DNA from: a virus
Taxonomy: Duplodnaviria > Heunggongvirae > Uroviricota > Caudoviricetes
Reading direction: 5' to 3' (one strand)
Virus record (IMG/VR): IMGVR_UViG_2690316086_000021
Length of the DNA stretch: 39,472 bases
Shown here: positions 6,107 to 10,627 of the stretch, one piece after another
How positions within the stretch are numbered: position 1 is the first letter of the stretch
Layout: each line of letters starts with the position of its first letter
Notes under the pieces: model-generated
The model's input: the letters and a program-made list of their open reading frames with translations, nothing else
Databases searched by the model: none
What the model was told of the DNA's origin: nothing
Program-made: the position numbers and the translations under genes

Positions 6107-6551
6107 AAAAAGGCCATTTCCATTCAGGGTCTGATGGAAATACTTCAGCCTGTTCCAAAGCACGGCGTAAAGAGAACACAACTCCAGCCATAATCTGATG
6201 TTTCCCATTGGTCCAGCTATCGCCGCTCTGATCTACAGGGGCGGCTATGTCGTATGACCAAACGACTTCACAGTTATTGTTTAAAATCTGGACTTTCATT
6301 TCATACACCTGCTTTAACATGAGTGCCTGGTGGCACAACATGACTCAACGAATCATCCTGGACTTCATATGCCCCAGGCGGCTACTTCGTGGGCGTCCTG
6401 CCTGTTCGTTTTTGACATTTACTGACTGCTTACGACACATGCACCGTGTTGCAACCAGATTTTGTTGTAATCCGGTAGTTGGTCTGGAACAAAAGATAAA
6501 ATTAAATTGCGAGATATGCAAGTAATATTTGCGGGGTATGCAAATTTATAG

Positions 6552-6597: not shown

Positions 6598-7290
6598 TTA
6601 ATTATGTCTCTTAAGGGTTTGCGACTGACTGATTAAGACCTTTCCAAAGACCATGAATCGGTGTTCGTTTTCGCTAGTAATTCCCCATTCACGGTAAATC
6701 TGGTTATCAGAAATCACCAGCAGTTTGTCAGGAATCATTTGAAGTCTTTTAACGTATATTTTGTCATCAAAACCAAAGACATATATACCATCACCATCAA
6801 ACTGATTGATGCTGACATCAACGAAGATGAGATCTCCTGGCTCAATGGTTGGACACATACTGTCCCCACGAACGTTGATAACTTTGATGTGATTGGCTGG
6901 TCGTCCGCCGAACATTGATACAGCATTATCAGTTCTGTATTCGATGGCATGAATCACATCAATGACATCACCGCCCTGGATAAGGCCATTTCCCGCACTG
7001 GCACTGATATCCAGCATTTCAATACGGAACACATCCTTCACCTGCGCAACATCCTCATTATTACTGTTTTTATATACAGTATTACTTTTGTGGGCAGAGG
7101 TAAAGAGATCAGCAATATCAACACCTAAGCTCTTGGCAATATTACTCAGTGTTTGTTCGGTAAATTGTTTTTGCTTACCCGTTTCTAAGCGCGAGATGTT
7201 CGCCGCATCTACTCCTATTGCTTCAGCGAGATCGGCGATTTTCATGTTCTTCGCTTGGCGAAGTTGTCTGACTCGGTTTCCTATGTTCAT
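6598..7290 (-). CDS. cI: CI-like prophage repressor (N-terminal XRE HTH + C-terminal S24 LexA-type peptidase)
   Basis: N-terminal HTH (VRQLRQAKNMKIADLAEAIGVDAANISRLETGK) and C-terminal S24-like region (..NVRGDSMCPTIEPGDLIFVD..KRL); transcribed divergently from the cro-like gene. Confidence 0.85.
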   Translation of the reverse strand: MNIGNRVRQLRQAKNMKIADLAEAIGVDAANISRLETGKQKQFTEQTLSNIAKSLGVDIADLFTSAHKSNTVYKNSNNEDVAQVKDVFRIEMLDISASAGNGLIQGGDVIDVIHAIEYRTDNAVSMFGGRPANHIKVINVRGDSMCPTIEPGDLIFVDVSINQFDGDGIYVFGFDDKIYVKRLQMIPDKLLVISDNQIYREWGITSENEHRFMVFGKVLISQSQTLKRHN

Positions 7291-7387
7291 GCGTTTATTA
7301 CATTTCTTTATTGCGTGATAAGCAAATCAACTTGCGCAAAATAATTGCGTGAAATAACATGCATAGCGCGCAATATTTGGAGGTTAT
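7291..7387. promoter_or_regulatory. Immunity operator/promoter region (OR/PRM/PR equivalent) with repeated TTGCG...CGCAA half-site palindromes
   Basis: Intergenic region between divergent repressor and cro-like genes contains TTGCGTGATAAGCAA (7311..7325), the perfect palindrome TTGCGCAA (7332..7339) and ATTGCGTGAAATAACATGCATAGCGCGCAAT (7344..7374). Confidence 0.6.
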
Positions 7388-7648
7388 ATGCAATCACCAT
7401 TACGAAATGTGCGTAAGGCGCATGGTTTCACTTTGCAGCATGTTGCTGCGGGTGTTCAAGTCAATCCAGCGACGTTGAGTCGTATTGAGAGGCTGGAGCA
7501 GATTCCATCTATCGAGCTTGCAGAACGTTTAGCCAATTTTTTTAAGGGTGAAGTCAGCGAAATGCAGATTCTTTATCCGGCACGTTTTCAATCTAGCCAA
7601 AACCAGAATGGGTTTAAACCACAGGAACAGGAGGTGAACCGTGGGTAA
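7388..7648 (+). CDS. cro: Cro-like HTH regulator
   Basis: 86-aa ORF with XRE-type HTH (GFTLQHVAAGVQVNPATLSRIER); GGAGG RBS; divergent from cI. Confidence 0.7.
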   Translation: MQSPLRNVRKAHGFTLQHVAAGVQVNPATLSRIERLEQIPSIELAERLANFFKGEVSEMQILYPARFQSSQNQNGFKPQEQEVNRG

Positions 7649-8201
7649 GCATCACTGGAAAGTAGAAAAACAGCCTGAGTGGTACGTGAAAGCTGTCAGA
7701 AAAACTATCGCAGCGTTGCCGGGGGGTTACGCTGAAGCTGCTGACTGGCTGGATGTAACAGAGAACGCATTATTTAACCGCCTTCGTGCCGATGGCGATC
7801 AGATTTTCCCGCTGGGATGGGCAATGATTTTGCAACGTGCTGGTGGAACTCACTTCATTGCTGACGCTGTGGCGCAGTCTGCAAATGGCGTCTTTGTGTC
7901 TCTTCCTGATGTCGAGGATGTGGACAACGCCGATATCAACCAACGCCTGCTGGAGGTCATTGAACAGATCGGCAGTTATTCAAAACAGATTCGTTCAGCA
8001 ATTGAAGACGGTGTAGTGGAACCGCATGAGAAGACAGCAATTAACGACGAGCTGTACCTCTCAATTTCGAAGCTGCAGGAGCATGCAGCACTGGTCTACA
8101 AAATTTTTTGCATTTCAGAAAGTAATGACGCCCGCGAGTGTGCAGCTCCGGGCGCCGTGGCGTGGCGTGTCGTGACTGTGGAGAAACTAACGCATGAATA
8201 G
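7641..8201 (+). CDS. CII/YdaT-like early regulatory protein (putative)
   Basis: 186-aa ORF directly after cro, GTG start with AGGAGG-like RBS; family assignment from position and recall only. Confidence 0.45.
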
Positions 8202-8532
8202 TTTAACAACACACTACCGTCGCTCGCAACTGATTGCGCTTCCTGTACCGGGTGGAAAAGCGAAGGTGGAGTATTGCTATGCAGTAAATGTACCAGGTGG
8301 CAGGGTAATTGTAACCCACAGCTTTGCAGAGTGGGCTGTGGGTGATTTTAACCGGCAAAAGGAGACAGTCCTTTGCGACAAGTTAACCGCTGGTTCAAAG
8401 ATCACTACGGAGTGCCCGTCAGAGTCATTCGTTGGGAGCCGGAAACACAACGGGTTATCTACCTCCGCGAAGGCTATGAGCATGAATGCTTCAGTCCGCT
8501 CGAACAGTTTCGTCGTAAATTCAGGGAAATAG
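8194..8532 (+). CDS. Hypothetical protein; 3' half of uncertain frame (see findings)
   Basis: ATG with GGAG RBS. The C-terminal half is Ser-rich and low-complexity, while an overlapping frame (8373..8552) encodes a more protein-like peptide. Confidence 0.35.
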
Positions 8533-8541
8533 AGGTCGGTC

Positions 8542-9483
8542 ATGAGCACTAAATTAACCGGCTATGTATGGGATGGTTGCGCAGCGTCAGGCATGAAATT
8601 ATCCAGCGTGGCAATTATGGCACGCCTGGCTGATTTCAGTAATGACGAAGGTGTGTGCTGGCCATCAATTGAAACCATTGCCCGCCAGATTGGCGCGGGG
8701 ATGAGTACCGTCAGAACGGCTATCGCACGGCTGGAAGCAGAAGGCTGGTTAACGCGTAAGGCGCGTCGCCAGGGTAACCGCAATGCGTCGAATGTTTATC
8801 AGCTTAACGTTGCGAAGCTTCAGGCTGCGGCTTTTTCTCAACTGTCAGATTCTGACCCGTCAAAATCTGACGCATCAAAATCTGACCCGTCAAAATTTGA
8901 TGCGTCGAAATCTGGCAAAAAAGCGGGTTTTCACCCGTCAGAATCTGGCGGGGATCCGTCAGTAAAATCAAAACATGATCCGTCAGATAAAAAAACTTCT
9001 CGTCCGGACGCTTCGCAACCGGACACGCGGAAGGCTGAACAGGATTTTTTAACTCGCCATCCTGATGCGGTTGTATTCAGCCCTAAAAAGCGCCAGTGGG
9101 GGACGCAGGATGATTTGACCTGCGCACAGTGGCTCTGGAAAAAAATCATCGCCCTGTACGAGCATGCCGCCGAATGTGACGGCGAGGTGGTTCGTCCCAA
9201 AGAACCGAACTGGACAGCCTGGGCAAACGAAATTCGCCTAATGTGTGTGCAGGATGGTCGTACTCATAAACAAATCTGCGAGATGTACAGCCGCGTCAGC
9301 CGCGATCCGTTCTGGTGCCGTAACGTGCTCAGCCCGTCGAAGCTGCGGGAAAAATGGGATGAGCTTTCCCTGCGCTTATCGCCGTCCGTCAGCACGTACA
9401 CCGAAAAACGCGAAGACCCGTACTTCAAAGCCAGTTACGACAACGTGGACTACAGCCAGATCCCGGCAGGATTCAGGGGGTGA
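8542..9483 (+). CDS. Replication initiation protein (lambda O-like) with internal iteron-type repeats
   Basis: N-terminal winged-helix DNA-binding region (..WPSIETIARQIGAGMSTVRTAIARLEAEGWL..) and internal tandem DNA repeats, as in lambdoid O genes that contain the origin. Confidence 0.7.
   Translation: MSTKLTGYVWDGCAASGMKLSSVAIMARLADFSNDEGVCWPSIETIARQIGAGMSTVRTAIARLEAEGWLTRKARRQGNRNASNVYQLNVAKLQAAAFSQLSDSDPSKSDASKSDPSKFDASKSGKKAGFHPSESGGDPSVKSKHDPSDKKTSRPDASQPDTRKAEQDFLTRHPDAVVFSPKKRQWGTQDDLTCAQWLWKKIIALYEHAAECDGEVVRPKEPNWTAWANEIRLMCVQDGRTHKQICEMYSRVSRDPFWCRNVLSPSKLREKWDELSLRLSPSVSTYTEKREDPYFKASYDNVDYSQIPAGFRG
8851..8995. repeat. Iteron-like tandem repeats (about 15-bp unit, consensus close to CCGTCAAAATCTGA) inside the O-like gene; candidate phage origin
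   Basis: Four perfect or near-perfect tandem copies (unit starts at about 8857, 8872, 8887, 8902) plus three degenerate CCGTCAG copies (8935, 8956, 8980), followed by an A-rich tract. Confidence 0.6.
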
Positions 9484-9974
9484 TCATGAGTCTGTTAAAT
9501 GACGTTCAGAAATTCATTGAAGCCCATCCGGGGTGTACTTCCGGAGACATTGCGGATGCTTTTACAGGTTACTCACGGCAGCGCGTTCTGCAGTCAGCAA
9601 GCAAGTTACGTCAGAGTGGGCGTGTGGCTCACCGTTGTGAAGGAGATACACGCAGACATTTCCCGCGCCTGACTGAGAGAGCGCAGGAACCGGAACCACA
9701 ACCAGTTCGTGAAACCAGACCTGTGCGCAATTTCTATGTCGGCACTAACGATCCCCGTGTGATTTTGTGCCTGACCCGCCAGGCGGAAGAACTGGAGTCC
9801 AGGGGCTTATACCGTCGTGCTGCAACCGTGTGGATGGCGGCATTCCGTGAAAGCCACTCCCAGCCAGAACGAAACAATTTTCTGGCGCGTCGTGAGCGGT
9901 GCTTACGGAAAAGCAGCAAGCGCGCTGCATCGGGTGAAGAGTGGTATCTGTCAGGGAATTACGTGGGGGCTTAA
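9480..9974 (+). CDS. YfdN-like prophage protein with PerC/ANR-like C-terminal motif (putative regulator)
   Basis: 164-aa ORF (GTG 9480 or ATG 9486) following the O-like gene; C-terminal ..LESRGLYRRAATVWMAAFRE.. resembles PerC-family regulators; assignment by recall. Confidence 0.45.
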   Translation: MIMSLLNDVQKFIEAHPGCTSGDIADAFTGYSRQRVLQSASKLRQSGRVAHRCEGDTRRHFPRLTERAQEPEPQPVRETRPVRNFYVGTNDPRVILCLTRQAEELESRGLYRRAATVWMAAFRESHSQPERNNFLARRERCLRKSSKRAASGEEWYLSGNYVGA

Positions 9975-10627
9975 TGAGTAATAAATATTGCCAGGCGCTG
10001 GTGGAACTGCGGAACAAACCAGCCCATGAACTGAAGGAAGTGGGCGATCAGTGGCGCACGCCGGACAACATTTTCTGGGGAATTAACACCCTGTTTGGCC
10101 CGTTTGTTCTGGATCTGTTCACTGACGGTGATAACGCCAAATGTGCCGCGTATTACACGGCGGAAGACAACGCGCTGGCGCATGACTGGTCAGAACGTCT
10201 TGCGGAGCTTAAAGGTGCTGCCTTTGGTAATCCCCCATACAGCCGCGCCAGTCAGCATGAGGGGCAATACATCACCGGCATGCGTTACATCATGAAACAT
10301 GCCAGTGCCATGCGTGATAAGGGCGGGCGCTATGTTTTCCTGATCAAAGCTGCCACCAGCGAAGTGTGGTGGCCGGAAGATGCAGATCATATTGCTTTTA
10401 TTCGCGGGCGTATTGGTTTTGAACTGCCTGTCTGGTTTATCCCGAAAGACGAGAAGCAGGTACCGACAGGAGCTTTTTTCGCTGGTGCTATTGCTGTTTT
10501 TGACAAGACCTGGAAGGGACCGGCAATCAGCTACATCGGGCGCGATGAACTTGAGGCATGTGGTGAGGCGTTTCTGGCGCAGGTTCGCCAGCAGGCGGAA
10601 AAACTGGTCAGGGAGATGGCGGCATGA
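9974..10627 (+). CDS. Phage N6-adenine DNA methyltransferase (Dam family)
   Basis: Catalytic motif FGNPPY (..AAFGNPPYSRA..); ATG 9974 overlaps the upstream stop (TAATG); the track's 9941 start would overlap the preceding gene. Confidence 0.8.
   Translation: MSNKYCQALVELRNKPAHELKEVGDQWRTPDNIFWGINTLFGPFVLDLFTDGDNAKCAAYYTAEDNALAHDWSERLAELKGAAFGNPPYSRASQHEGQYITGMRYIMKHASAMRDKGGRYVFLIKAATSEVWWPEDADHIAFIRGRIGFELPVWFIPKDEKQVPTGAFFAGAIAVFDKTWKGPAISYIGRDELEACGEAFLAQVRQQAEKLVREMAA

Follow-up and report, generated by a model that had tools for sequence, protein, structure and literature searches.

The window analysed here, a 39,472-bp stretch of tailed-phage DNA (IMG/VR record IMGVR_UViG_2690316086_000021), contains at 8542..9483 a replication initiator gene, and inside this gene lies an array of short palindromic repeats that is probably the origin of replication of an SfIV-like lambdoid phage. 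The gene product matches PHROG 391, "replication initiation O-like" (E = 2.9e-135), and the gene has 98.7% nucleotide identity with gp41 of Shigella phage SfIV and with its counterparts in SfII and several E. coli phages, where it is annotated as "DNA replication protein O" or "primosomal protein." It is set in a lambdoid early-right operon. The features of the gene are as follows; no strand is assigned to the repeats, boxes, and A/T-rich stretch.

8542..9483, plus strand: replication initiator gene (313 amino acids; winged-helix N terminus, predicted disordered linker, lambda-O-type C-terminal domain)
8542..8838, plus strand: coding region of the N-terminal winged-helix DNA-binding domain (amino acids 1-99), the presumed iteron reader, from Pfam, AlphaFold, and a fold search
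8844..8856: iteron 1, GTCAGATTCTGAC, a perfect 6+1+6 palindrome
8859..8871: iteron 2, GTCAAAATCTGAC
8874..8886: iteron 3, ATCAAAATCTGAC
8889..8901: iteron 4, GTCAAAATTTGAT
8904..8916: iteron 5, GTCGAAATCTGGC, degenerate
8937..8949: iteron 6, GTCAGAATCTGGC, isolated, 33 bp further on
8953..8967: conserved box 1, GATCCGTCAGTAAAA, headed by GATC and holding a Dam site
8961..9000: A/T-rich stretch with an A-strand bias, a candidate DNA-unwinding element by duplex stability
8977..8995: conserved box 2, GATCCGTCAGATAAAAAAA, holding another Dam site with an A run after it
9031..9387, plus strand: coding region of the C-terminal helical domain (amino acids 164-282), homologous to the lambda O and phi80 gp15 C-terminal domains

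We searched the window with Tandem Repeats Finder (TRF). The array was detected at 8851-8914 with a period of 15 bp (4.3 copies, 81% matches, score of 86) and at a period of 30 bp with 88% matches and a score of 100; no other array in the window scored above 38. The repeat unit is a 13-bp near-palindrome, GTCA(A/G)A-W-TCTG(A/G)C, plus 2 bp. Six copies of the palindrome fall within 106 bp (8844-8949), five of them head to tail at a 15-bp period. When up to two mismatches were allowed, the pattern GTCARAWTCTGRC gave 17 strand-matches in the window, compared to 5.84 ± 2.97 in shuffled sequences, and 0 of 100 shuffles reached 17. Eleven of these matches are on the six sites; the other 6 are at five sites, each with two mismatches. 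Two-mismatch matches to the iteron core are found at 6187-6199, 6281-6291, and 6455-6465, left of the repressor gene, in a number that is within chance for the window.

The initial annotation had reported tandem repeats of about 15 bp in the initiator gene, and TRF bears this out. Its location for the array was correct as to the gene, but the array begins at 8844, 7 bp before the reported start at 8851. The three degenerate copies that it listed correspond to iteron 6 and the boxes GATCCGTCAGTAAAA and GATCCGTCAGATAAAAAAA. The A-rich stretch that it placed after the repeats is real, although short: at 28% G+C, 8961-9000 is less stable than any other 40-mer of the initiator gene, with a nearest-neighbor free energy (dG) of -46.2, compared to a window mean of -55.9 ± 4.4, placing it in the least stable 2.4% of the window. 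The linker peptide that it gave, SDPSKSDASKSDPSKFDASKS, is the correct translation of the array in the open reading frame (ORF) 8542..9483; the array peptide begins SDPSKSDASK.

We looked for other signals in and around the array. Within the initiator gene, there was no DnaA box with one mismatch or fewer (two are nearby, at 7919 and 8177), and no promoter-like site was found. A terminator-like hairpin on the minus strand between iterons 5 and 6 (8937..8924, CGGGTGAAAACCCG followed by a T run) was set aside because its codons are variable in other loci; it is probably fortuitous, judging from that comparison. The ORFs that cross the array in a different frame or strand, 8783..8965 (plus strand) and 8804..8971 (minus strand), were rejected as by-products of the repeat.

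To compare the array across related phages, we scanned one genome per species with the first 100 initiator residues, which yielded 79 loci. Statistics for the N-terminal domain are from 68 complete Enterobacterales homologues, whose N-terminal domains are 69 to 100% identical; those for the array and boxes are from the 67 of these with a box after the array. Gene neighborhoods and box occurrences were counted in 72 loci, with fetched flanks reaching only ~900 nucleotides downstream. The 15-bp unit occurs 3 to 10 times in each of the 67 loci. Third-position entropy in the N-terminal domain is 1.56 of 2 bits at conserved residues with four- or sixfold degeneracy and 0.90 of 1 bit at those with twofold degeneracy; synonymous sites of this domain are therefore near saturation. 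Codons 0 to 18 after the array read TTT SAC CCG YCA GAA TCT GGN GGG GAT CCG TCA GTA AAW TCA AAA nnn GAT CCA TCA, with almost invariant third positions. Some of these codons change at the first or second position while the third stays fixed (TCA/CCA/GCA, TCA/TTA, and GAC/CAC), and the rare valine codon GTA in the post-array box is retained in 66 of the 67 loci. Normalized synonymous codon entropy was 0.14 in the post-array box and 0.81 in the N-terminal domain (Mann-Whitney P = 5e-8), and pairwise third-position identity was 0.83 and 0.45, respectively.

Codon usage inside the array was determined for 381 units, taken in register without selection for the motif. The serine before lysine is encoded by TCA in 276 units and by TCG in 10, whereas the serine before aspartate is encoded by TCT in 253 and by TCC in 19. 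The lists of the eight most frequent codons at these two positions contain no AGY codon, whereas AGC, AGT, and all four TCN codons occur at conserved serines of the N-terminal domain. The unit's fifth codon, made up of the 2-bp spacer and the first base of the next site, is hypervariable. Judged by its codons, the array shows the opposite of the pattern expected from selection on the peptide.

The per-locus consensus units are 13-bp near-palindromes throughout, and their type differs by initiator subfamily: GTCA(A/G)AnTCTGAC, GTCAACnGTTGAC (subfamily B), TCCAGAnTCTGGA (subfamily C), and TTCAGAnTCTGAA, all at a 15-bp period. The palindromes pair with recognition helices of the N-terminal domain as follows.

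GTCA(A/G)A-W-TCTGAC: recognition helix STVRTAI
GTCAAC-n-GTTGAC: recognition helix STVKSAI (locus L083)
TCCAGA-n-TCTGGA: recognition helix STVIGLI (loci L084 and L086)
TTCAGA-n-TCTGAA: recognition helix STVITAI (locus L069)

Changes in one half-site between subfamilies are mirrored in the opposite half-site, and the arrays encode unrelated peptides (SKSDx, DPSxV, RPExE, and SERSD). In subfamily C, the isolated iteron 6 switches together with the iteron type, to TCCAGAATCTGGA. The symmetry makes a dimeric binding protein plausible but not hairpin formation, since the center of the palindrome is a single base. More-distant homologues (from Psychrobacter, Thorsellia, Phlomobacter, and others), with N-terminal domains 34 to 41% identical, have unrelated repeats at gene nucleotides 280 to 450. 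The periods of these repeats are 18, 22, or 23 bp, except that in one homologue the three copies are 33 and 25 bp apart; repeats with periods of 22 and 23 bp cannot be peptide repeats. Because synonymous positions are frozen while amino acids vary, because the palindromes of the subfamilies differ symmetrically, and because distant homologues have 22- to 23-bp periods, we conclude from these comparisons that the repeats behave as DNA sites and not as a peptide repeat.

Two boxes follow the array. Of the codons of box 1, GAT is kept in 67 of 67 loci, CCG in 63, TCA in 57, and GTA in 66. Of the 72 loci, 67 contain GATCCRTYAGTA, and in 56 of these 67 another GATCC lies no more than 30 nucleotides away. 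Both boxes are unchanged across initiator subfamilies A, B, and C. Together they form an element of ~45 bp, GATCCGTCAGTA-N12-GATCCRTCAGATAAAAAA (8953-8995), that is kept nearly base for base over three subfamilies that differ in their iterons and over two unrelated C-terminal domains. It is possible, from the presence of the two GATC sites, that methylation is tied to origin firing.

The initiator consists of two folded domains joined by a linker. The best Pfam match is HTH_36 at amino acids 23 to 70 (E = 4.2e-11); Phage_rep_O (PF04492) gave no match at an E value of ≤0.01. In an AlphaFold model built on 39 homologues, the N-terminal domain (residues 1 to 99) is a helix-turn-helix with a beta wing, with a predicted local distance difference test (pLDDT) score of 65 to 89 per ten-residue block, and most blocks of the C-terminal domain in residues 191 to 280 score 87 to 94. 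Between the folded domains, residues 103 to 163 have a pLDDT of <50. The array, boxes, and A/T-rich stretch correspond to amino acids 101 to 153, in the linker; the array is thus predicted to code for a disordered linker, and the low-complexity linker of the initial annotation fits the model. A fold search of the PDB with the N-terminal domain returned generic winged helices of the MarR/ArsR type as best matches and, with the C-terminal domain, nothing informative; a PDB sequence search with the initiator gave no close solved structure.

The C-terminal domain is of the lambda O type. BLASTP aligned the initiator to lambda O with an E value of 3e-26 (31% identity over 216 amino acids), and hhalign gave a probability of 99.7% (E = 3.4e-25, 105 columns), with the C-terminal domain alone aligned. 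The same domain is 36% identical to that of phi80 gp15 (E = 4e-25). No plasmid Rep family in Pfam scored above its curated cutoff, the sole hit being RP-C (17.2 bits, compared to a cutoff of 24.4). Hence, the earlier description of the gene as "O-like" holds for its C-terminal half, whereas the N-terminal domain belongs to HTH_36 and not to Phage_rep_O. In phage phiNP and most related loci, a Phg_2220_C C terminus instead follows the same combination of N-terminal domain, array, and boxes, with the point of exchange between N- and C-terminal modules just after the boxes. The N-terminal domain and the sites thus appear to travel together, as expected if they must stay paired. The array of phiNP is nearly identical to that of the window. 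Recent recombination as a cause of this near identity was ruled out by equal conservation in 67 loci with saturated flanking synonymous sites.

We consider it likely that 8844-9000 is the replication origin, located inside the gene for its own initiator. This interpretation is favored because the array is unique in the window and not due to chance, is constrained at the DNA level, and covaries symmetrically; because relatives have repeats at the same place; and because the array lies in the linker, adjoins unstable DNA, and is followed by the point of module exchange. In the mechanism that we propose, dimers of the N-terminal winged-helix domain would bind the six 13-bp palindromes (five at a 15-bp period and one 33 bp on). 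The resulting complex would melt the adjoining DNA at 8961-9000, which carries the two GATC-headed boxes. The lambda-O-type C-terminal domain would then bring in the host replicative helicase, presumably through host DnaB-DnaC directly or through another partner, because the phage has no P or DnaC-like loader. The peptide encoded by the array would serve as a disordered linker and would owe its sequence mostly to the DNA sites. Binding by the N-terminal domain, unwinding, helicase recruitment, and origin firing are all inferred by analogy with lambda, phi80, P22, and L.

This is the classical lambdoid arrangement, as the initial annotation had proposed for a candidate origin in the initiator gene, and sequence comparison supports that proposal through the linker position, the lambda-O-type C-terminal domain, and the adjoining meltable DNA. 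In lambda, the origin is established at the homologous position, inside gene O (PMC7466680). As in ori-lambda, the initiator gene has dyad-symmetric repeated sites in its middle part, which encodes the linker that joins an N-terminal DNA-binding domain to a homologous C-terminal domain; an A/T-rich stretch is on the downstream side of the sites, and the gene follows cro and a cII-like gene in the pR operon. In contrast to lambda, the N-terminal domain here is HTH_36, with no profile match to the Phage_rep_O N terminus of lambda O; the sites are unrelated in sequence and are 13 bp at a 15-bp period, compared to 18 bp at 20 to 24 bp; the A/T-rich part carries two conserved GATC-headed boxes; and the window has no P gene. 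The C-terminal domain of lambda O is the P-interacting half. What is new is the HTH_36-type reader, the 13-bp palindrome at a 15-bp period, the conserved pair of GATC boxes, and the absence of a loader gene; the lambda paradigm is extended, not overturned.

Gene 15 of phi80 has the same architecture, with four annotated gp15-binding sites inside the gene and a homologous C-terminal domain; the annotated initiator-binding iterons of both lambda and phi80 are at the equivalent gene position. Unlike the initiator of the window, gp15 has a Phage_rep_O N terminus (E = 6e-25 with the same Pfam library), its iterons are unrelated and have a 21-bp period, and gene 15 is followed by gp14, a P analogue that was not found in the window. 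The gene 18 initiators of P22 and L, distantly related lambdoid proteins that we set beside our initiator by description only, also have their own repeats, different in sequence, inside the coding region: four repeats of ~20 bp in P22 and, in L, six imprecise copies of an 11-bp repeat that was proposed as an origin from sequence alone (PMC8022706). In both phages, the initiator is paired with a DnaB-type helicase, gp12 (PMC8022706).

SfV orf39 (L089:1758-2576) shares with the window the gene order initiator, PerC-like, dam, LexA-like, and rusA. Its N-terminal domain is a distant relative (39% identical), and the gene carries a repeat array of its own at the corresponding position. The SfV array differs in consisting of five GTGCAnnnnnTTCAC units with spacings of 24, 21, 21, and 24 bp, and close nucleotide similarity between the two genes is limited to the last 76 nucleotides. 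Three AGAACCAGTCA repeats follow the GTGCAnnnnnTTCAC array in SfV. Among the features listed in the SfV record for the orf39 stretch, there is no repeat or origin. SfV also has the same loader-less gene order.

For helicase recruitment in the absence of a P protein, the closest analogy is with iteron plasmids. In these replicons (pSC101 RepA, F RepE, R6K pi, and RK2 TrfA), a winged-helix initiator binds direct repeats adjoining an A/T-rich unwinding element; no dedicated loader is encoded, and Rep uses host DnaB-DnaC directly. Plasmid iterons are ~17 to 22 bp at a spacing of ~22 bp and lie outside the rep gene, whereas the sites here are inside the gene and the initiator has no plasmid Rep family match above the cutoff.

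Several points weigh against an origin at 8844-9000. We found no experimental report in the literature of binding or origin activity for this initiator family. With no lambda P, phi80 gp14, or DnaC-like gene in the window, the helicase-loading step has no component assigned to it. The A/T-rich stretch, at ~40 bp, is shorter than in well-studied origins and is only moderately extreme (top 2.4%). The 15-bp period sets neighboring sites on nearly opposite faces of the helix, whereas lambda, phi80, and plasmid iterons have a spacing of about two turns; the nucleoprotein complex may thus be shaped differently from the lambda O-some. Since the array adjoins the N-terminal domain, the two are co-inherited, and the association of palindrome type with subfamily is not independent evidence of recognition. 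Lastly, the site spacings in the window (15, 15, 15, 15, and 33 bp, then 21 and 24 bp) are all multiples of 3, as a peptide repeat alone would also give.

A bolder form of the origin model, which we regard as unlikely, assigns the central role to 8953-8995. This element would be more than an A/T-rich spacer: it would act as a portable origin core read by the host, at which DNA is unwound or the helicase enters, and its Dam sites would tie firing to phage Dam methylation and host SeqA. The initiator, having no P or DnaC partner, would load host DnaB there directly, and the 15-bp palindromes would form a continuous initiator filament in place of a lambda-like wrapped O-some.

The array could also be a genuine cluster of initiator-binding sites that serves control, with replication starting elsewhere; the initiator would regulate itself or block transcription of the pR operon, or the sites would titrate the initiator or mediate the pairing of origins ("handcuffing"). 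Constraint at the DNA level and covariation suit any function of binding sites, the dense 15-bp packing is atypical of origins, and iteron plasmids use one set of repeats for initiation as well as control. We nevertheless judge a purely regulatory role to be improbable: the window has no second repeat array, the least stable DNA of the gene directly adjoins this one, and the homologous position in lambda and phi80 is occupied by annotated initiator-binding iterons, which in lambda belong to an established origin (PMC7466680).

It is more doubtful still that the repeats are sites for another protein (the DUF4222 protein, the PerC/MarR-like protein, or a host factor) while the initiator binds elsewhere. 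Such a protein could be encoded nearby, since 65 of 72 loci have a DUF4222 gene ahead of the initiator gene and the protein encoded downstream has a weak MarR_2-type winged-helix match; moreover, the GATC boxes are constant across initiator subfamilies, so their reader may not be the N-terminal domain. The palindrome type, however, tracks the N-terminal subfamily of the initiator. A PerC-like gene is near only 22 of 72 loci, within flanks of ~900 nucleotides downstream, and in phiNP, despite its nearly identical array, a methyltransferase gene is instead directly downstream of rep. In lambda, phi80, P22, and L, the sites at this position are all the initiator's own.

We give very little credence to the possibility that the array is only a low-complexity peptide linker, its DNA repeat having arisen when a pentapeptide unit favored for its flexibility or charge, S-K-S-D-x, was multiplied by slippage or duplication. 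The in-frame spacings of the window, the predicted disorder of the region, and the different copy numbers among relatives would all fit. Against this, synonymous sites are far more conserved than in the neighboring folded domain, and more than some nonsynonymous sites of the same codons; each of the two serine positions keeps a codon of its own; the palindrome is kept in subfamilies whose peptide is wholly changed; and the 22- to 23-bp periods of distant homologues cannot encode a peptide repeat.

Equally remote is a structured RNA, a DNA cruciform, or a recombination junction kept similar by recent phage exchange: folding of 8836-9000 as RNA gives a z-score of -6.97 and modules are exchanged just after the boxes, but low folding energy is automatic for tandem palindromes, the predicted long-range pairs link different copies whose number varies from ~3 to 10, a 1-nucleotide palindrome center is too short for a loop, Rfam (E ≤ 1, 7300-10000) gave only a chance mir-5880 match (30.7 bits, compared to a gathering score of 97), and conservation extends over 67 loci of many genera in which flanking synonymous sites are saturated.

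With respect to helicase loading, tblastn searches of the whole window with lambda P, phi80 gp14, and a DnaC-like protein gave nothing with an E value below 0.7, and a loader-type gene (P, gp14, or DnaC-like) is present in the fetched flank of only 3 of 72 related loci. A lambda-O-type C-terminal domain with no neighboring loader raises the question of how such "solo" initiators recruit the host helicase.

Our literature search, extended to the repeat sequence, turned up no publication describing this origin; the paper on the SfIV genome refers to a "replication module" only and to no origin. In public records of these phages, the sole annotation at the locus is "replication protein O" or "primosomal protein," and in the best phage database matches, protein-coding genes are the sole features listed under the match to the initiator gene. 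The array is thus a concrete candidate origin for prophages that are very common in E. coli, Shigella, and other Enterobacterales (SfII, SfIV, and their relatives); the closest protein cluster of the initiator has 5,414 member sequences. It is also a natural experiment in dual coding, with one DNA stretch providing both palindromic sites and a translated linker, and with subfamilies that differ in their palindromes and hence in their peptides.

The genes around the initiator gene are as follows.

6598..7290, minus strand: CI-like repressor gene
7388..7648: cro-like gene, early-right operon
7641..8201: cII/CP76-like gene, early-right operon
8373..8552, plus strand: small DUF4222 gene, directly 5′ of the initiator gene
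9480..9974: PerC-like gene, the next gene 3′ of the initiator gene
9941..10627: Dam methyltransferase gene, 3′ of the PerC-like gene
3′ of the Dam gene: gene for a LexA-like DNA-binding protein, then rusA

The recurrent placement of a DUF4222 gene directly 5′ of the initiator gene hints that its function is tied to replication. In the window, the 59-amino-acid ORF at 8373..8552 (plus strand), which has a solid Pfam match to DUF4222 (E = 8.6e-19), is overlapped in another frame by a 112-amino-acid ORF at 8194..8532 (SfIV gp40; PHROG 1170). PHROG 20047 spans only residues 1 to 63 of the longer ORF. Because of this partial coverage and the solid DUF4222 match, the 112-amino-acid call is probably a run-on over the genuine DUF4222 gene. 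A phage Dam methyltransferase gene, present in the window, is also found in the short fetched flank of 31 of 72 loci.

Use of the replicon by plasmids was considered and rejected. Most hits in PLSDB are prophages in large or misassigned records or 40-kb circular phage genomes, with no independent evidence of autonomous replication, and a 16-kb record resembles a prophage fragment with cro, rusA, and Q-like genes. In two E. coli chromosomes (L055 and L073), from position 1501, initiator residues 1 to 79 are fused in frame to the sequence of another protein, suggesting that these are prophage remnants in which a large internal segment was deleted or rearranged. Three loci assigned to Vagococcus sp. 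(L012), Chryseobacterium sp. (L034), and Martelella alba (L039) carry an Enterobacterales-type initiator with 82 to 88% amino acid identity and are probably from contaminated assemblies.

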